Made by a program: the position numbers and the translations under genes | Origin: Mobula hypostoma | Lineage: Eukaryota | DNA: 64,000 nt | Direction of reading: 5' to 3' | Assembly (NCBI RefSeq): GCF_963921235.1 | Contig: NC_086097.1 | Coordinates: 40,922,001 to 40,986,000 of the forward strand | The notes under the pieces: model-generated | What the model was told of the DNA's origin: nothing | Seen by the model: only the letters and a program-made list of their open reading frames with translations | Databases searched by the model: none | Shown here: positions 1,416 through 53,845 of the stretch, in pieces | Position numbering within the stretch: position 1 is the stretch's first letter | How the letters are laid out: each line of letters opens with the position of its first letter

Positions 1416-2110
1416 TGTAAGGGGGTTTCGAATTTTATGTTACATGTGGATGCTAATTAAAATGGCGTCTTTGTTATGTTAATCTGGGGAATGCGGCTTT
1501 GTTGTGTTAAACGCTGAGAAAGTTTGCGCTAGCAGCTTATTTTTACTTTAGAGTGTGATAAGAGAGTGCTATTAACCAATTGGGATAGTTGTTATGGTTT
1601 TGGTGTATTTGAAGATGCTGTATGCGCGGGGTTTTGGGGCAGAAGGTGGGAGAGTGAGACAGAGGATGGACCAGGTGCTGTGAGTCCGCTAACGGGGTCG
1701 GACCCCGAGCGAGACGTTCGGCGAGGAGACGGAGACGGACTTGTGTGGAGCGTCTGGTCGACCACCGTTGTTGGTCCCAGACGGCCGGTTGAGGTGGTCT
1801 GAGGGGTCACAGGGTGAAGAAGCAGGTCCTTGAGCTGCAACGGTTTTTGTGCACGAAGAGATTGAACTTTGATAAGTGTGGCGCCTTTTATTTTCCTTTT
1901 ATATTTTATTCTCTCTTAATTATATAGTTCCAGTAATATCTATAAACTGTAAATCATTTAATTGTATCTGGTGTATTGTCTGTTATTTGGGCGGGGTGGG
2001 GTACCTCACACAGCATCCACACAAACGAATTATCCAGTTTGCCGGGGCCGAGGCTGTTTCCCTAGATGACAGCGAGCCGAGCAACCCTGAGGGTGGCCGG
2101 GGGGGCTACA
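1416..2110 (+). repeat. 5' LTR (TGTA...TACA)
   Basis: About 95% identical to 4820-5517 (roughly 34 substitutions counted by eye, plus small indels). Confidence 0.95.
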
Positions 2111-2113
2111 TTG

Positions 2114-2131
2114 TGGGGGCTCGTCCGGGAT
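2114..2131 (+). promoter_or_regulatory. Primer-binding site, tRNA-Pro
   Basis: TGGGGGCTCGTCCGGGAT is the 18-nt complement of the tRNA-Pro 3' end (the classic MLV-type PBS), 3 nt after the LTR. Confidence 0.92.
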
Positions 2132-2384
2132 GGAGCCTGCTGGTATGCTGTGTGGGTGCCCTGTTTAAATCTGTGATGTGTGTCTCTGTGGGTTATTTGC
2201 TGGTGATTGCTGTATGCGTGGTGGGTGAGGTCTTTGTTCGAGTTCAGGCTGGCATTGACGAGTTGGAGGTGGCACTCGGGGCTGTCCATGCAGTTGGGAG
2301 AGAGAGGAAAGAGTGGTCTGATTTGAGGTAGAATCTGAGAATAAATGTTCTAGCTCTGGCAGGCTCCGCCTGGCACTTGGGATA

Positions 2385-2807
2385 GTGTCCACCCCAAGAG
2401 GGGCGGAGGCGTGTGAGACGTGGGCGGAGCGGATCTCGCAGTTGTTAGATGAGTGGCAGTGCTCGGTTGAGGGAGAGCGACAGGGATTGGTTGAAAGTTT
2501 GTGTAGGTGGGCTAGTGACGGTGTTAGAGCTGTCAGGCTCAGTTACACTGTAGTGACTGCTGTCAGTTATTTGAAAGAGGGGGGAAAGTTTTCAGTGTGT
2601 CTTCTCTGGCTAGGAGGGCGGCTAAATTGCTTGCAGTGCCAGGGGGATCATTTCAGGGGATCAGCCCCTCCTTCAGTTGTTCAGCTGATCAGAGAGGTGT
2701 CGGGAAACTTAGTGGAGGCCCAGTGGGGGAACGGCTTGGGGTCTCTGGGGAAGCATGTTCCCAGCAATGTACCAATGTACTTCCGAAAGGAGAAGACCTA
2801 TTCCTGA
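2385..2807 (+). pseudogene. Degenerate PNMA-type Gypsy gag (capsid remnant and decayed zinc knuckle)
   Basis: TPRGAEACETWAERISQLLDEWQCS...QGLVESL resembles PNMA/Gypsy capsid; CLQCQGDHF resembles an eroded CCHC knuckle. Confidence 0.7.
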
Positions 2808-3387
2808 AGGCTTAAAGGGACAACACCCCAGGGTGTTGCTATGGATAGAGGGAAGCGATGCTAAAGCTATCCTCGACCCCGGGGCACAGATCAAGTTGTT
2901 GTACAGTTCGTTTTACAATCGGTGTCTGAAGCATTTATCCTTGACAACCACAAGGGCACCGGAGACTTTGGGTACTAGTGGCAGTAGTTATCCAGAAGAC
3001 GATGATTGGTTAATGACCCTGGAAGTCATGGAGGCATTTTCTGGGCACCCAGCATGTCGAGTTGCTTCCGAGGACGTGTGTAGCAGCCTTGAGCTAGTAC
3101 CGAATTTAAACGAGACCCAGCGGTGGTACGGTTTGGGGAAAGTAGCTGAGGGTGAGACCCTCTTAGTAGATGCTCCGGACTACCATGAGGGAGGGGAGTT
3201 GACCGCTGAAGACACCTCAGTAAGAGAGAGGTCACGGCAACTGGACCCTAGCGGCGTGGAAGATGAAGGCAGCGTGTGTGTGGATTATGCGATGTGGTTT
3301 AATGTGCTGCATCTGAGGGGTGGATGTTGCCAGATCCTGAGGAGAGCGGCTGTTGAGCTGAAGATGGCCGTTACTAATTCCCTATGA
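2800..3387 (+). pseudogene. Degenerate aspartic protease and N-terminal RT remnants
   Basis: AKAILDPGAQI (DTG changed to DPG); VCVDY and WFNVLHLRGGCCQI are RT motifs brought together by deletion. Confidence 0.75.
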
Positions 3388-3405
3388 TTCTTCTGATCCG
3401 AAAAG

Positions 3406-4485
3406 ATGCCCAAGGGCATATCCGGAGCCCCTGCATCCTTCCCGCGGGGCAAGAGGAAGACCATGGGGGAAGTGAAGGAGTGTGGAGTTTTGACGTATGT
3501 GGATGACCGCCTAGAGCTTGGATTCGCCTGGGGGGACTATGAGGCGAGGGGAGTGGCTGAGCCCGGGCGACCGAAGCGAAGTGTCATATGTGGAGGAGTT
3601 TTTGGCCGGAGGAGTTTGGTGCAATGTGAGAAAAATGACCTGACATACCAGTTGAACTTCCTGGTGTTGGGACAGACGGTGGTGGACCGGGGGATGGAAA
3701 CCCAGGTCGTCAATCTGAATGAGACACAGGGAAGAGAGGGGATTTGCACCGTACTGCGGTCATGTACTGATGAATTAATCCAGCGAGAAGAAACAATGAC
3801 CCACCTTCGAAGGGATCAGCAGAAACTCAAGACTTCGATTCAGAACAGATTGGAAGACTTGCAAGTTGGGGAAGATCAAGGAAGTGTTCTGACTAAGGTC
3901 AACAGAAAACCGAGCGCCCAGGGAGGGGAGTTTGACTACACTCCCGAGGAGGTAAAGAAATGGAGGACAGATCTCAGAAAAGGGAGGCGGACACTTGAAA
4001 GGAACCTGAAGATGACTATCGCGAGTTTAAACGAAGTGGAAAAACTGAAAGTTGACCTGGAAGACGTCCTCAGGAAGAAACAACCGGAGGCTGAACATTC
4101 TTTAACTGCTGCTTTTCAGGTCAGGGTGGAAGAAGCTGGTGGGGTAACTGCGTCCCAGATTGAGATGACCAAGAACCCTGAGTCGGAACTGCTGAGGCTG
4201 TGGCGAGAGTTGAAGGAGTCCCCAAAGAAGCTGACGTCTCGACTGCAGGAGGCTGAAGGGGTAGCCCCGGCTAAATGTTTCAGTTTGGAGAAACTTAAAC
4301 AGCAGCTACCGATCGAAGGAATGAGGAAGGATACAGATTCGAAGGATGATGTGCTGCCCATGTGGTACATGCTGCCTTTCGCTAATTTCCCCATGATTGA
4401 GGAAGAGACCTTTGGCCCTTCTCCCACTGAGTCAGGTGTGGTGGGGAGGGCTAGCTGTGGGCAGTCTGAGTTGTGGCAGGATTAG
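3406..4485 (+). CDS. Chimeric 359-aa ORF: RT remnant + myosin heavy-chain rod fragments + probable pol C-terminal tail (expression unknown)
   Basis: MPKGISGAPASF...VLTYVDD (RT), then EKNDLTYQL, LEDLQVGED, LKMTIASLNEVEKLKVDLEDVL, RVEEAGGVTASQIEM, KKLTSRLQEAE and AKCFSLEKLKQQL (myosin rod motifs in native order). Confidence 0.75.
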   Translation: MPKGISGAPASFPRGKRKTMGEVKECGVLTYVDDRLELGFAWGDYEARGVAEPGRPKRSVICGGVFGRRSLVQCEKNDLTYQLNFLVLGQTVVDRGMETQVVNLNETQGREGICTVLRSCTDELIQREETMTHLRRDQQKLKTSIQNRLEDLQVGEDQGSVLTKVNRKPSAQGGEFDYTPEEVKKWRTDLRKGRRTLERNLKMTIASLNEVEKLKVDLEDVLRKKQPEAEHSLTAAFQVRVEEAGGVTASQIEMTKNPESELLRLWRELKESPKKLTSRLQEAEGVAPAKCFSLEKLKQQLPIEGMRKDTDSKDDVLPMWYMLPFANFPMIEEETFGPSPTESGVVGRASCGQSELWQD

Positions 4486-4819
4486 GAAGGAGGAGAGGCG
4501 GGGCCCCAGACACAGGACAGGGGGCTCTGAGCTGTAGTGGTGGCCTGAGTGAGAGAGGAGTTGGCAAACAGGCCCGAGGTATCCCTAGTAGTGTCTGAGC
4601 CTTTTGGGTTTAGGTGAGGGGGTCCGGAGGTCTCGGAGGGTTAAGAAGCTCTCAGATAGGTTGGCCTATGTAGCGCCCGTGGGACGGGTGTAAGGTCCAC
4701 TGTTTGGGGAGCACTGGCACTGTGTGTATCTGTGTATGTGTGTGTTGTGTGTCTGCAGGACTGGTTGGCGAGTTATTTAGAAGTCATGAGGACATGACTT
4801 TATTTGGTGGGGGGGAGAG

Positions 4820-5517
4820 TGTAAGGGGGTTTCGACTTTTATGTTACATGCGGAGGCTAATTAAAATGGCGTCTTTGTTATGTTAATCTGGGGAATGCGG
4901 CTTTGTGTTAAACGCTGAGAAAGTTTGCGCTAGCAGCTTATTTTTACTTTAGAGTGTGATAAGGGAGTGCTATTAACCAATTGGGATAGTTGTTATGGTT
5001 TTCGTGTATTTGAAGGTACTGTATGCGCGGGGTTTTGGGGCAGAAGGCGGAAGAGCGAGACAGAGGATGGACCAGGTGCTGTGAGTCCGCTAACGGGGTC
5101 GGACCCCGAATGGGACATTCGGCGAGGAGACGGAGACGGACTTGTGTGGAGCATCTGGTCAACCACCGTTGTTGGTCCCAGGCGGCCGGTCGAGGTGGTC
5201 CGAGGGGTCGCAGGGTGAAGAAGCAGGTCCTTGAGCTCCAACGGTTTTTCTGCATGAAGAGATAGAACTTTGATAAGTGTGGCGCCTTTTATTTTCCTTT
5301 TATATTTTATTCTCTCTTAATTATATAGTTCCAGTAATATCTGTAAACTGTAAATCATTTAATCGTATCTGGTGTATTGTCTGTTATTTGGGCGGGGTGG
5401 GGTACCTCACACAGTATCCACACAAACGAATTATCCAGTTTGCTGGGGCCGAGGCTGTTTCCCTAGACGACAGCAAACTGAGCGACCCTGAGGGTGGCCG
5501 GGGGGGGGGGGGCTACG
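4820..5517 (+). repeat. 3' LTR (terminal CA mutated to CG)
   Basis: Direct repeat of 1416-2110; preceded by PPT ggtgggggggagag; followed by TSD TATG. Confidence 0.95.
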
Positions 5518-5715
5518 TATGCCTAGAACCATTGACCCACACCTGGACCATCTCCCTCCACACCCCTCCCATCCATGTACTTATCCAAAATTCTCTTATG
5601 TGTTGTAATCGAACCTACATCCACCAATTCCACTGGCAGCTCATTCCACACTCTGACCATCCTCTGATTGAAGCGGATCTCCCTCATGTTCCCTTTAAAC
5701 ATTTCATCTTTCACT

Positions 5716-47055: not shown

Positions 47056-48022
47056 GTGCCAGTAGGATATTATTTTGAAAAGGGAGGATTGATGAGGAAG
47101 TGGAAATCACCTACAATTCCTGCTAGTGAGGAATGGGAAGTTAATCATCATGTAGTAGTTCCTAAAGTTTATCGAAATGAGATTTTAACTATGGCTCAAG
47201 CTATGCCTTTGGGTGGCCATCAAGGTGTAAAGAAAACTATGAATAAGGTTTTTAAACATTTTTACTGGCCTAGTTTAAGAAAGGATGTGGCGACATTTTG
47301 CAGGATGTGTCATACATGTCAAATTGTGGGTAAACCTAATCAAGTTACTCCAGTGGCCCCACTGCAACCAATTCCAGCATTTGGTGAGCTGTTTTCCAAA
47401 ATTATTATAGATTGTGTAAGCCCATTGCCAAAAACTAAAACTGGGCATCAATATTTGCTGACCATTATGTGCACAGCGTCTAGGTTTCCAGAGCAATACC
47501 TCTTGGGAATATAACAGCCAAAACTGTGACAAAGGCTCTTATAAAATTCTTTACTTATTTTGGGTTGCCTAAGGAAATACAATCGGATCAAGGTAGTAAT
47601 TTTATTTTTGGATTATTTCTGCAGGTAGTTTATAAACTGGGAGGAAAACAGATTACCTCATCTGCATATCATCCAGAATCACAAGGAGCCTTGGAGATAT
47701 TCCATGCTACCCTTAAAACTATGATTAGAACGTATTGTGTAGAAAATGAAAAGGACTGGGATGAAGGTGTACATTTACTACTTTTTGCAGTATGGGAGGC
47801 AGTACAGGAATCATTAGGCTTTAGTCCTTTTGAACTTGTGTTTGGGCATAGAGTTCGAGGATCTTTGGCCTTGTTGAAAGAACAGTGGATTAATAAAGAG
47901 GTACACACCAATTTGTTGGATTATGTTTTAAAATTTAAAGAAAGATTACTTAAAACTTGTAGCTTAGCCAAGGAAAACTTAAAATCGGCTCAGGAGAAGA
48001 TGAAAACTTGGTATGATAAGGA
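47056..48022 (+). pseudogene. Integrase (zinc-binding and DDE core), frameshifted
   Basis: GHQGVKKT...FYWP...CRMCHTCQ; IIIDCV; IQSDQGSNF; YHPESQGALE. Confidence 0.92.
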
Positions 48023-49019
48023 TCAACTCCACCATCAACTCTGCTCTCAAACGCATCTCCCCCATTTCACGCACATCTGCTCTCAGTCTATCCTCTCGCC
48101 ACCCCACGAGGAATAGGGTTCCCCTGGTCCTCACCTACCACCCCACCAGCCTCCGGGTCCAACATATTATTCTCCATAACTTCTGCCACCTCCAACGGGA
48201 TCCCACCACTAAGCACATCTTTCCCTCCCCCCCCTCTGCTTTCCACAGGATTCGCTCACTACAAGACTCCCTTGTCCATTCGTCCCCCCATCCCTCCCCA
48301 CTGATCTCCCTCCTGGCACTTATCCTTGTAAGCAAAACAAGTGCTACACATACCCTTACACTTCCTCCCTTACCACCATTCAGGGCCCCAGACAGTCCTT
48401 CCAGGTGAGGCGACACTTCACTTGTGCTGGGGTGATATACTGCGTCTGGTGCTCCCGATGTCGCCTTCAATATATTGGCGACACCCGACGCAGACTGGGA
48501 GACCGCTTTGCTGAATACCTACGCTCTGTCCACAGAGAAAGCAGAATCTCCCAGTGGCCACACATTTTAATTCCACATCCCATTCCCATTCTGACTAGTC
48601 TGTCCACGGCCTCCTCTACTGTAAAGATGAAGCCACACTCAGGTTGGAGGAACAACACCTTATATTCCGTCTGGGTAGCTCCAACCTGATGGCATGAACA
48701 TTGACTTCTCTAACTTCCGCTAATGCCCCACCCCACCTCGTACCCCCATCTGTTATTTATTTTTATACACACATTCTTTCTCTCACGCTCCTTTTTCTCC
48801 CTCTGTCCCTCTGACTGTACCCCTTGCCCATCCTCTGGGTTTCCCCCCTCCCCCTTTTCTTTCTCCCCGGACCTCCTGTCCCATGATCCTCTCATAGCCC
48901 CTTTTGCCAATCACCTGTCCAGCTCTTGGCTCCATCCCTCCCCCTCCTGTCTTCTCCTATCATTTTGGATCCCCCTTCCCCTCCCACTTTCAAATCTCAA
49001 ACTAACTCTTCCTTCAGTT

Positions 49020-49055
49020 AGTCCTGACGAAGGGTCTCGGCCTGAAATGTCGACT
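49020..49055 (+). ncRNA. Minimal type I hammerhead ribozyme motif (stem III mutated)
   Basis: AGTC-CTGACGA-AGGGTCTCGGCCT-GAAATGTC-GACT. Confidence 0.65.
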
Positions 49056-49188
49056 GTACCTCTTCCTAGAGATGCTGCCTGGCCTGCTGCGCTCACCTGC
49101 AACTTTGACGTGTGTTGCTTGAATTTCCAGCATCTGCAGAATTCCTGTTGTTTGCGTTTTTAAATTCACTACTGCGAAGCCTATTCCG

Positions 49189-52100
49189 GTGATGCCTACA
49201 CGGAAGAAGTTTAGATCTTCTCCTCGACGGGAGTTCAGTGAAACCATCTCTCACTGCTTCCCACCTGTAATTTCTTCGGCTCTTCGACTTTTCGACTACA
49301 TTTTGACTCTGACTCACTATCACAGCCATATATCCATTCTTGGAATGTGCCTCCGCTGCCAACTTACTCCAGTTGGCTTTAGGATTCGTTTCCGAGCCCC
49401 TCAATTTGGACCTTCTGAGGATCCCAGGTACTCATATTTTATTGACTCTGCCTCTCGTCGCTTCTCCCGTCAAGCTCTGAAGGCGACTCTCTCTGTCATG
49501 AGGAGGTATTTGGTGTCCCTATCCCGGACCCTTCCACACGTTCGGGACACTTTCTTCGCCGTCTGTAATGGTCCTACCCGTTATTTCATCCTCCGTCGGA
49601 TCCATGCCTACAATCGCCGTTTATTTGACTTTGTCATGTTAGGCAAAGATTGCAAGATCCTGCATCTGCGGACCCCAGAGCCTGCTGGCCCTGAAACTAA
49701 CAGGTATGAACTTCAGATTGCCTTTGCCATTGATCTCGCCAGCTCCAACACCTCAGGGCATATTCAAAACCCAGACTCCAGCAACGACCATGGACACCTT
49801 CAAAGCGATTGCGCAACCACCAACTGCGACTCCAGCCTTGAACTCCAGGCCGGGTCTTTATGTGCTGCTATTGTGACTCCCGTCTCCCCTTCCCCCATCA
49901 ATACTCTGCAATCCTGTCTCCCTCAGATCCCATCGTCAGCTCCTGGGTACTCAGAGGCTCCATCTTCCTCTCACCCCAACCCTCCCCTCTCCACTGACAC
50001 CCCCAGCCTCCCCCCTCCCCCCTGATCCCAGCTCTCAACCATGCCGGGTCTTTACCATCCCCTCCGACCTTCAACTGTCGGAGGCAGAACGCTCTGTCCT
50101 TAGTAAGGGCCTCACCTTTGTCCCCTTTCGCCCATACCTCAACGAGTTCCGTGTTCGCCATGATGCGGAACTCTTCTTCCGCCGTCTCCATCTCCGAGCC
50201 TACTTCTTCAGCAAGGACTCTTCCACCCCTACCGATGACCCCTTCTCCCGTCTTCAACCCTCCTCTTCTTCATGGACACCCCGCTCTGGTCTTCTGGCCT
50301 GCTCTGGATCTCTTTATTGCTAACTGCCGACAGGACATCAACCGTCTCGACTTCACCGCATCTTGTTCCCATTCCAACCTCACTCCTTCCGAACGCTCTG
50401 CTCTCCACTCCCTCCACACTAATCCTAACCTTACTATGAAACCCGCCGATAAGGGGGCTGCTGTTGTAGTCTGGTGTACTGACCTCTACCTTGCCGAGGC
50501 ATAGCAACAACTCACGGATACCTCCTCTTATTTACCCCTCAATCATGACCCCACTAAGGAGCACCAGGCCATTGTCTCCCACACCATCACTGACTTTATC
50601 CGCTCAGGGGATCTCCCATCCACTGCTACCAACCTTATAGTTCCCACACCTCGCACTTCCCGTTTCTACCTCCTACCCAAGATCCACAAACCTGCCTGTC
50701 CTGGCAGACCTATTGTCTCAGCTTGCTCCTGCCCCACCGAACTCGTTTCTGCATACCTCGACACAGTTTTATCCCCCCTTGTTCAATCCCTTCCTACCTA
50801 TGTTCATGACACTTCTTACGCTCTTAAAACTTTTCGATTATTTTAAGTTCCTTGGCCCCCACCGCTTTATTTTCACCATGGACGTCCAGTCCCTATATAC
50901 CTCCATCCTCCATCAGGCAGGTCTCAAAGCTCTCCGCTTCTTTTTGGATTCCAGACCTAATCAGTTCCCCTCTACCACCACGCTGCTCCGTCTAGCGGAA
51001 TTAGTCCTTGCTCTTAATAATTTCTCCTTTGGCTCCTCCCACTTCCTCCAAACAAAAGGTGTAGCTATGGGCACCCGTATGGGTCCTAGCTATGCCTACC
51101 TTTTTGTTGGCTTTGTGGAACAATCTATGTTCCGTACCTGTTCTGGTATCTGTCCCCCACTTTTCCTTCACTACATCGACGACTGCATTGGCACTGCTTC
51201 CTGCACGCATGCTGAGCTCGTTGACTTTATTAACTTTGCCTCCAACTTTCACCCTGCCCTCAAGTTTACCTGGTCCATTTCCGACACCTCCCTCCCCTTT
51301 CTAGATCTTCCTGTCTCTATCTCTGGAGACAGCTTATCCACTGATGTCTACTATAAGCCTACTGACTCTCACAGCTATCTGGACTATTCCTCTTCTCACC
51401 CTGTCTCTTGCAACAATGCCATCCCCTTTTCGCAATTCCTCCGTCTCCGCCGCATCTGCTCTCAGGATGAGGCTTCTCATTCCAGGACGAGAGAGATGTC
51501 CTCCTTTTTTAAAGAAAGGGGCTTCCCTTCCTCCACCATCAACTCTGCTCTCAAACGCATCTCCCCCATTTCACGCACATCTGCTCTCACTCCATTGTCC
51601 CACCACCTGACTAGGAATAGGGTTCCCCTGGTCCTCACTTACCACCCCACCAGCCTCCGGGTCGAACATATTATTCTCCGTAACTTCCGCCACCTCCAAC
51701 GGGATCCCACCACTAAGCACATCTTTCCCTCCCTGCCCCCCCCCCCGGCTTTCCACAGAGATCGCTCCCTATGCGACTCCCTTGTCCATTCGTCCCCCCC
51801 CATCCCTCCCCACTGATCTCCCTCCTGGCACTTATCCTTGTAAGCAGAACAAGTGCTACACATGCCCTCACACTTCCTCCCTTACCACCATTCAGGGCCC
51901 CAATCAGTCCTTCTAGGTGAGGCGACACTTTACCTGTGAGTCTGCTGGGGTGATATACTGCGTCCGGTGCTCCTGATGTGGCCTTCTATATTGGCGAGAC
52001 CCGACGCAGACTGGGAGACCGCTTTGCTGAACACCTACGCTCTGTCTGCCAGAGAAAGCAGGATCTCCCAGTGGCCACACATTTTAATTCCACGTCCCAT

Positions 52101-52645: not shown

Positions 52646-53845
52646 AGCTAGGATGAAATGATTTAAGCCTGGAGATAAGGTGTTGGTTCTTTTCCCGGTG
52701 CAAACGAACCCATTACAAGCTAAATTTCATGGTCTTTATGAGATTAAATCTAAATTAAATGATGTGGATTATGTGATTTAAAAACCCCAGATTGAAGAAA
52801 GGCTACACAGCTGTGTCATATAAATATAAAACCGTATTATGAGAGATAGGGTGCTACAATGACTGTTGTGGTCAATAATAATGAGTCTGATCTTTCTAAA
52901 AACTTAATGGATGATTCATCTGAAACTCATTTTAAATCCAACATTATTTCTGCCAGGTTACCGAACTCCACAATTCTGGAAAGTATTGATGAGGAATTAG
53001 CTCATTTACAGCCAGAGCAGAGAGAGCAGATGAAATAGTTAAATTTTAAATATAGGGATTTATTTCCAGACGTTCCTAGAAGAACCACCGTAGCTTCGCA
53101 TGACGTAGATGTTGGAGATGCAAAACCAATAAAACAACATCCATATCGGATGAACAGGGAAAAATGTGAACTTGTTGAACAAGAAATTAAGTATATGTTT
53201 GAGAATAATATTATTAGATTATGGTGCCTAAGCCAGACAATAGTATTCGGTTTTGTACAGATTACAGGAAGGTGAATGCTGTGACAAAAACTGATGCATA
53301 TCCAATCCCTAGGGTTGATGATTGTGTGGATAAAGTTGGACAAGCAAAGTTCCTTACAAAGATTGATTTGTTAAAAGGTTATTGGTGTGTTCTACTGACG
53401 GATAGAGATAGAGAGATTTCTGCATTTGTAACCCCATCTGGGTTATACGAATATAATGTTCTTCCATTTGGGATGAAGAATGCACCAGGTACTTTCTAGC
53501 GGATGATTAATAGTGTGATTCATGGGTTAAAAGATACAGATGCCTATATTGATGATTTAGTGAAAGGGAATAAGACGTGGAAAGCACATATTACTGCAGT
53601 GGAGAAACTATTTGAGAGACTTTCAAAAGCTAACTTAACTATTACCTTAGCTAAAAGTGAATTTGGTCATGCCACTGTGACTTACTTTGGTTATGTTGTA
53701 GGCCGGAGCTCAGTTAAAGAAAATGGTTAAGGAAATAAATCAAACTGCAATTTAGCAACAAAGTTTGATGTTACAGGAGTATAATATTTTGATAACTCAT
53801 ATTAAAGGTAAAGATAATGTGATTGCTGGTTGTCTATATAGATGT
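52646..53845 (+). pseudogene. Integrase C-terminal GPY/F module, RT, and RNase H C-terminal remnant
   Basis: FKPGDKVLVL; VPKPDNSIRFCTDYRKVN; KIDLLKGYW; LPFGMKNAP; YIDD; then a deletion to LQEYNILITHIKGKDNVIA. Confidence 0.9.

Follow-up and report, generated by a model that had tools for sequence, protein, structure and literature searches.

How a piece of muscle myosin came to lie, intronless and in frame, within the pol gene of a retrotransposon is the question raised by a locus in the ray Mobula hypostoma. The locus belongs to a stretch of 64,000 nucleotides (nt) on contig NC_086097.1 (assembly GCF_963921235.1, positions 40,922,001 to 40,986,000), which is called the window here and in which positions 1416–5517 form a 4.1-kb long terminal repeat (LTR) element with a 4-bp target duplication and a tRNA-Pro-type primer site. 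All features of this element lie on the forward strand. Its stop-to-stop open reading frame (ORF) at 3397–4485 has 362 codons, or 359 codons counted from the first ATG at 3406. An initial annotation read this ORF as running from reverse transcriptase (RT) motifs into a coiled coil, and the ATG, the motif MPKGISGAPASF and YVDD are all present. The element is very probably a decayed copy of a non-autonomous Ty3/Gypsy family, in whose ancestor the integrase was replaced in frame by spliced mRNA of the jaw-muscle myosin gene MYH16, and which was then amplified with the myosin piece as a passenger.

Myosin Identity of the Rod

In a phmmer comparison with the PDB, amino acids (aa) 120–233 of the ORF align with Myosin-4 residues 978–1091 over 114 residues without a gap (E 1.3e-7), in agreement with the gapless alignment proposed earlier for residues ~116–228. 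Among the 13 sequences listed, 11 are muscle myosin II heavy chains, one is a chimera that holds MYH7 residues 1361–1425 (E 0.0023), and one is unrelated (E 1.5). Two further blocks of the rod follow in native order, near myosin residues 1145–1180 and 1390–1427. By blastp, the ORF matches Leucoraja (skate) myosin-16 at E 9e-27, a shark MYH7-like protein at 6e-17, and teleost fast myosin at 6e-15.

A protein search with the window ORF gave a single weak myosin match, and P0013, the protein of an older copy at locus L063, is a far more informative query, with 4275 proteins found. The first 87 rows of this search (E 5e-40 to 3e-30, 50–57% identity) consist of 68 proteins named myosin-16 or MYH16, four other myosins, and 15 proteins with generic names, whereas other sarcomeric myosins begin at E 2.5e-28 with 44–48% identity. 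Older copies match MYH16 over 157–176 residues at 50–57% identity, and at the DNA level a similarity to the exons of the host MYH16 can still be seen (78.6% over 70 nt, E 1.5e-10). The eight element sequences in a maximum-likelihood tree of 27 rows group together (100/100) and fall inside the MYH16 clade (97/94). The MYH16 type named at the outset is thus upheld by the search as well as the tree, and the myosin match is far above chance and specific to MYH16.

The rod occupies 3691–4317 and is collinear with MYH16 residues ~887–1403, with four internal deletions; it has no motor and is therefore a fragment and not a myosin gene. A length of 235 aa had been proposed; the myosin derivation stands and the length is reduced to ~210 aa. 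Likewise, one of the seven motif blocks listed as myosin, EKNDLTYQL, was misassigned. This block, continued by NFLVLGQTVVD at 3628–3687, is a ribonuclease H (RNase H) motif, whose counterparts are ERNYPTHKLNFLALERAVVD in older copies and ERNYPTHKLEFLALKWAVVD in a related autonomous element, L071.

Position of the Rod in pol

The domain order of L071 is PNMA gag, two zf-CCHC knuckles, RVT_1, RT_RNaseH_2, Integrase_H2C2, and rve, an arrangement that can be assigned to the Ty3/Gypsy type by its Pfam domain types. An env-like ORF was not seen in the 10 kb of the L071 locus. The window copy keeps remnants of protease, RT, and RNase H in the Ty3/Gypsy order. The protease-like part of the pol frame (2713–3384) is 50% identical over 82 aa to the protease region of L071 and is closed by two private TGA stops (3385–3387 and 3394–3396), which are read as G and R in the named protein P0001 (94% identical). 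The RT remnant with internal deletions (3256–3520; MPKGISGAPASF at 3406–3441 and YVDD at 3496–3507) is 32.6% identical to the L071 RT over 172 aa (E 2.4e-11), and the RNase H remnant EKNDLTYQLNFLVLGQTVVD lies at 3628–3687. Older copies retain more of the RT (RVT_1 at E 5e-12 in L064), and RT_RNaseH is matched by Pfam in L063. The RNase H of L071 is ~70% identical to that of the myosin-carrying element. No integrase is present in the window copy or in L063, L064, and L068–L070, and the RT is internally deleted, so that the window element is non-autonomous.

In L063 and L064, the RNase H is complete to ..YDFSLKYRPGS.NID.., and the rod is entered ~ten codons later at EQES... This start, preceded by ..LDMDE in the chimera, matches EQEN, the first codons of the host exon that begins at residue 872. 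After the rod, the frame reads ..DSKDD..WYMLPFANFP.IEEETFGPSPTESG, which is the pol C-terminus of L071, located downstream of its integrase; there, the pol of L071 ends with ..DTSSEDDDSDVWYLFPLADSLVPGEETPGPSITESG, the counterpart of the tail in the window. The last ~50 residues of the window frame are therefore the C-terminus of the element's own pol (DTDSKDD..WYMLPFANFPMIEEETFGPSPTESG, 4330–4437). Since pol sequence of the element is found on both flanks of the rod, the ancestral rod replaced the integrase only, in frame on both sides. The initial annotation had the rod replace RNase H together with integrase; the integrase part of this reading holds, whereas the RNase H is still present in the older subfamily and was lost later. 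The window subfamily is younger, and most of its RT and RNase H also disappeared through later deletions.

At the 5′ junction, a short GAG-GAG-rich stretch (GAG GAG .. AG.) is common to L071 and the spliced mRNA, where L071 is a distant relative and the copies are old. The 3′ junction, in a reading without gaps, falls within an exon, and the host part ends at about residue 1403–1405. Because the subfamilies carry different internal deletions of the rod, the original capture was longer and covered at least residues ~872–1403.

Donor Gene and Absence of Introns

The host MYH16 gene, with its introns, lies on a separate contig (C36:112714000-112733500, minus strand), and its exons are 71–96% identical to Mustelus myosin-16. 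In Mustelus numbering, the rod exons comprise residues 811–871, 872–947, 947–982, 982–1012, 1012–1060, and 1058–1090, and, further along, 1109–1139, 1139–1221, and onward. L063 and L064 contain residues ~872–1108 in a single unbroken match, and another old copy holds positions 19–352 of a goby fragment inside 1000 nt. At least five host exon junctions are thus crossed without an intron in the older copies, and the capture therefore took place via RNA, as had been proposed from the lack of introns across several exons.

Other myosin sequences of the genome were also recorded. At G000:C68:15.30-15.90 Mb, nine or more myosin heavy chain genes of the fast-skeletal type are arranged in tandem, and the same rod exons are repeated there at 72–92% identity to teleost fast myosin. 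A genome scan with Pfam Myosin_tail_1 returned mostly non-muscle-type myosin genes and unrelated intronless pieces. The latter, at L031 (G000:C18:48745314-48746731), L032–L034, and other loci, contain stops and cover Pfam positions 514–993 with up to 432 bits. Only four of the ten loci checked (L031–L034) match the sarcomeric myosins tried, at merely 26–30% identity, and a Gypsy flank is absent at all ten. Element proteins gave nothing useful by tblastn on the Myosin_tail_1 loci, and element DNA gave no blastn match there. These loci probably arose as processed pseudogenes from myosins of the non-muscle type and have no relation to the element family.

Family, Subfamilies and Age

With the DNA of the ORF as query, 1634 first-look candidates were obtained, and all 40 that were scored are 95–100% identical to the query, near full length, and distributed over 18 contigs. 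Propagation as a family, which had been suggested for this locus, is thereby confirmed, and the chimera is not a single copy. Protein queries with the myosin rod gave 3504 and 4187 first-look candidates; about 80 of 115 matches in one search and most of 74 in the other are unbroken, 31–52% identical, and not host exons.

At least three subfamilies can be distinguished. The old subfamily (L063, L064) shows ~80% DNA identity to the window rod. The mid subfamily (L068–L070) is 92% identical and has 120 extra nt, which encode 40 more rod residues. The young subfamily comprises the window copy and L002–L030, and the 120-nt deletion at ~3751 is specific to it. Named relatives with 94–95% identity come from Mobula birostris, and more distant ones from Mobula hypostoma, Hypanus sabinus, and Hemitrygon akajei, including two from Hypanus sabinus that are named 'putative uncharacterized protein MYH16'. 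Moreover, contigs from four public runs (three organism codes, three studies), which are of uncertain kind and only guessed to be RNA, reach 29 of 30 bins of the internal region; one of them bridges the deletion point of the young subfamily, and loose ends show the mid-subfamily insert. Three gene models, P0011 (Hemitrygon akajei), P0008, and P0010 (both Mobula hypostoma), join a rod piece of the element to unrelated sequence and are likely annotation chimeras caused by the family.

The two LTRs of the window copy are 94.8% alike over 690 nt, and this divergence of 5.2% would place its insertion about 26 million years ago if a rate of 1e-9 per site per year is assumed, which is not a measured value. 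The family would be much older than this copy because its subfamilies differ by ~20% and it is present in several stingray genera.

Selection and Reading Frame

In 25 of the 30 young copies, including that of the window, the ORF frame contains an internal stop or a frameshift. The window copy itself is broken at four private places, which are the two upstream TGA stops, a 1-nt loss at 2796, and the terminal TAG. This TAG (4483–4485), which ends the ORF, is apparently private, since no stop at codon 363 is listed for the 29 other copies and P0002 reads Q there and continues.

A comparison of nonsynonymous and synonymous substitution rates (dN/dS) among copies, recommended in the initial annotation, gives in-frame values equal to those of out-of-frame controls. 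For the pooled rod, dN/dS among young copies is 0.53 and that between subfamilies 0.69, against 0.62–0.82 in the two wrong frames. Between old and younger copies, it is 0.41–0.75 in frame and 0.34–1.29 out of frame, and for codons fixed between subfamilies, it is 0.59 in frame and 0.72 and 0.57 in the wrong frames. In addition, the window rod contains seven prolines, whereas Mustelus MYH16 872–1405 and the old copy have none, and the coiled coil of the rod is eroding. Because dN/dS equals the out-of-frame controls, most copies are broken, and seven prolines were gained, the rod looks like passenger cargo with no detectable amino-acid constraint.

Proposed Origin and Alternative Explanations

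In the preferred explanation, a host MYH16 mRNA would have been packaged in a virus-like particle of the element. The reverse transcriptase would then have changed template twice, from the RNA of the element to the mRNA and back again, which is the known route of LTR-mediated retroposition and the most likely one here. The captured stretch would start at about residue 872 and end near 1403, with RNase H before it and the pol C-terminus after it. The LTRs, the primer site, the polypurine tract, and gag are all retained in the chimera, which may therefore have been mobilised by related autonomous Gypsy elements. Such relatives are abundant, as an RNase H query has 188,433 first-look candidates; the 150 scored consist of the query's own locus and 149 others at 61–73% identity, some with open frames of up to 1714 aa. 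Diversification into subfamilies that lost further pieces of RT, RNase H, and rod followed, and the copy number would have reached about a thousand or more.

Several observations do not fit this explanation well. The autonomous partner with matching LTRs was not identified, the LTRs of L071 having been compared only in part, and the copy-number estimates are counts of unverified first-look candidates. The element clade branches outside crown gnathostome MYH16 in the tree and has a long stem, so that the donor need not have been the MYH16 gene of the ray lineage itself. A constraint that groups the element with elasmobranch MYH16 costs 14.2 log-likelihood units and is marginally rejected (p-AU 0.044, approximately unbiased test), where the group was named after inspection of the tree. 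Long-branch effects are the likeliest reason for this placement, and a very old capture or a transfer from another host may also account for it. The reading frame is a further difficulty. In mid-subfamily copies, one uninterrupted frame reaches from gag into the rod (716, 544, and 677 aa), and in the six copies checked, frame 0 has 0–1 stops per ~360 codons, compared with 21–26 in the other frames. Although five or more large deletions have occurred, the RT, RNase H, rod, and tail remnants are each still read in the native frame; the loss of 120 nt removes exactly 40 codons, and of the remaining gaps some are not divisible by three, but their lengths add up to a multiple of three. Young copies carry 29 stops in 23 unshifted copies, or ~1.3 stops per ~2.5% private divergence, and about four fixed stops would be expected over the ~12% that separates the founders of the old and mid subfamilies. 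There are none, with a rough P of 0.02 to which ascertainment applies. An open frame in the active lineages is not predicted by a pure passenger status.

These frame data are what speaks for a captured rod, or translation through it, that is functional for the element, with selection keeping the frame open. Such a function is nevertheless improbable, as dN/dS equals that of the out-of-frame controls, the seven prolines are helix-breaking, 25 of 30 young copies are broken, and the window was chosen for its ORF, which introduces an ascertainment bias. A doubtful extension of this idea is that the active lineages are selected to keep the gag-pol-rod frame open while residues drift, where translation or a fusion protein would aid the success of the element. 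If so, the captured host fragment would be a working part of a parasite-of-a-parasite strategy, either through protection of the genomic RNA from decay or through entry of RNA or protein into the particles of the helper.

Apart from function, the origin of the junctions can be explained by classical transduction, which differs from packaging and template switching solely in how the 5′ junction was formed. Here, a sense insertion into the MYH16 intron before the residue-872 exon would give a read-through transcript, spliced from a cryptic donor after RNase H, and one later template switch within an exon would restore the 3′ end. The host part does begin within about a codon of an exon start (EQEN, residue 872), a coincidence with an estimated chance of ~3–5% given exons of 30–80 codons (the authors' own estimate), and the 3′ junction lies inside an exon. 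However, the same codons resemble L071, as predicted by a switch guided by microsimilarity of the kind described in parts of Tan et al. (PMC5131818), and no GT donor is seen at the break in L071, itself only a distant relative. With a relative as distant as L071 for comparison, both routes fit the 5′ junction, and transduction is a serious candidate, though the less likely of the two. A DNA-level event or assembly artefact, with one of the two, element or MYH16 pseudogene, inserted in the other and then spread by segmental duplication, was considered because intronless myosin-tail pieces occur elsewhere in the genome, and no support for it was found. The low identity of these loci (4 of 10 at 26–30%) and their lack of Gypsy flanks separate them from the element, in which the rod lies between pol parts of one element inside intact LTRs with a target duplication. 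With copies dispersed over 18 contigs, and public-run contigs covering the chimeric region in 29 of 30 bins, one of them across the deletion point, such an event is very improbable. The same can be said even more strongly of the possibility that an accessory ORF native to the element resembles myosin as any coiled coil would. The Pfam family Myosin_tail_1, which was expected from the initial annotation, is not reported for the window ORF or for P0013, a result that also counts against a myosin origin, and only a weak CENPH match (E 0.011, below cut-off) is obtained. On the other hand, a generic helix would hardly give a gapless, correctly registered match of 114 residues, collinearity of three blocks that contain distinctive non-heptad motifs, 50–57% identity to MYH16 with a preference for this paralogue, and DNA similarity to host exons, so that this possibility retains next to no probability.

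Other Features of the Element and its Surroundings

The initial description of an LTR element flanked by a target-site duplication is correct. Direct repeats that are 95–97% alike with a spacing of 3401–3404 nt extend to a full LTR pair, with a 5′ LTR of 695 bp (1416–2110) and a 3′ LTR of 698 bp (4820–5517). Both LTRs start with TG; the 5′ LTR ends in CA and the 3′ LTR in CG, with G for A as its last base. The duplication TATG is identical on the left (1412–1415) and right (5518–5521) flanks. A second complete copy, L070, has TAAC on both sides, and in a third, L069, the target duplication is not recognisable.

The primer binding site TGGGGGCTCGTCCGGGAT (2114–2131, 18 nt) begins three bases past the 5′ LTR and is complementary to a tRNA-Pro(TGG)-like 3′ end. 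Its reverse complement is found at L073 (G000:C1:21293957-21296973) as the 3′ end, with CCA, of a tRNA half that was retro-copied and has the anticodon loop TGG (Pro). The 17-nt tRNA-Pro 3′-end motif has 524 matches genome-wide (248 forward, 276 reverse), and a control with the reversed pattern has none. At both loci examined the motif is followed by CCA, and L073 includes the anticodon arm; ARAGORN found no whole tRNA gene at these two loci. Loci with this motif look like relics of primer-tRNA read-through or primer sites of other LTR families. The polypurine tract GGTGGGGGGGAGAG (4806–4819) abuts the 3′ LTR and is kept in L068–L070.

The gag remnant, a PNMA-type capsid (2322–2807), is matched by Pfam PNMA at E 5.7e-6 with 26.3 bits, just above the cut-off of 25 bits, and is 39% identical to the L071 gag. 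In the window copy, gag is out of frame with pol because of the private 1-nt loss at 2796, whereas gag and pol form one frame in L068.

Directly 3′ of the pol C-terminus of L071 (7721–10000, G000:C76:3025721-3028000), more than 2.2 kb of tandem repeats occur, which are 92–96% self-similar at many offsets and are open in several frames on both strands. Elsewhere in the window, an integrase-like stretch at 47149–48020 (+) is 26–35% identical to the L071 integrase, and an RT-like stretch at 53218–53715 (+) is 26% identical to the L071 RT; neither is a copy of the myosin element. Beside these remnants, the region 48000–52000 has 52% guanine plus cytosine (GC) and a GC skew of -0.36 to -0.42.

Comparison with Known Systems

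Acutely transforming retroviruses transduce oncogenes, with spliced host sequence carried in frame in a defective, helper-dependent genome. The ray element is similar in its spliced in-frame insert and its probable helper dependence, and its 5′ junction coincides with an exon start. In contrast, its cargo is without conceivable growth advantage, and the element is an intracellular retrotransposon amplified in the germline. The read-through, splice, and recombination model of transduction is that of Swain and Coffin (1992), as cited in PMC5131818.

LTR-mediated retrocopies in animals, formed by a double template switch at microsimilarities within the particle, were reported by Tan et al. (2016, Genome Res, PMC5131818), whose relevant sections describe them in fly, mosquito, zebrafish (5/7), chicken (4/10), mouse, and human. 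As in the ray, an internal, intronless, often partial mRNA copy replaces part of an ORF, sometimes in frame, with both LTRs and discontinuous parts of the element on its flanks. As far as those sections go, such retrocopies exist in single or few copies, with secondary retroposition in two fly cases, whereas the ray chimera is a multi-species family with 40 verified copies, thousands of further candidates, and several subfamilies. From the same source, maize Bs1 is also a non-autonomous LTR element with host exon fragments that propagated with the same switch points; it differs as a plant copia-like element that exists in Zea as one to five copies and draws on three parental genes (PMC5131818), while the ray element is Gypsy-type, draws on one parental gene, and has far more copies. 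MaLR elements mobilised by MERVL, as outlined there, share with the ray element a defective pol, common termini, and dependence on autonomous relatives, and are described without host coding sequence (PMC5131818).

Among vertebrates, crocodilian endogenous retroviruses (ERVs) with KIT-ligand and nectin3 are, in the relevant parts of Chong et al. (2014, PMC4299795), an LTR lineage that captured host mRNA and has several insertions across related species. Nine copies of KIT-ligand and six of nectin3 are given, which are whole ORFs under purifying selection, one of them replacing env. Compared with these ERVs, the ray element is of the Ty3/Gypsy type, its rod fragment replaces integrase and is without residue constraint, and its copy number is orders of magnitude higher (PMC4299795).

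A myosin-carrying retrotransposon of rays or sharks was not found in the literature, a search outside of which the repeat libraries Repbase and Dfam lay. The mechanism, LTR-mediated retroposition, is already described in animals, including vertebrates, and what is unusual is the scale of amplification and the persistence. The ray element also differs from known cases by its carrier, which is Gypsy-type and from a cartilaginous fish, and by its cargo, a structural rod that replaces integrase.

Implications

The family provides a clean and datable vertebrate case in which capture of a spliced host mRNA led to a large, multi-species family and not to a single dead retrocopy. LTR-mediated capture can thus scatter very many fragments of one host gene through a vertebrate genome. 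For annotation, it matters that several public gene models of rays match the element under the names 'putative uncharacterized protein MYH16' or 'myosin heavy chain-like'. The nested deletions form a natural record of a non-autonomous element shrinking while it remains mobile. Moreover, the dispersed fragments bear on the potential for exon shuffling and on possible small-RNA cross-talk with the parental MYH16.

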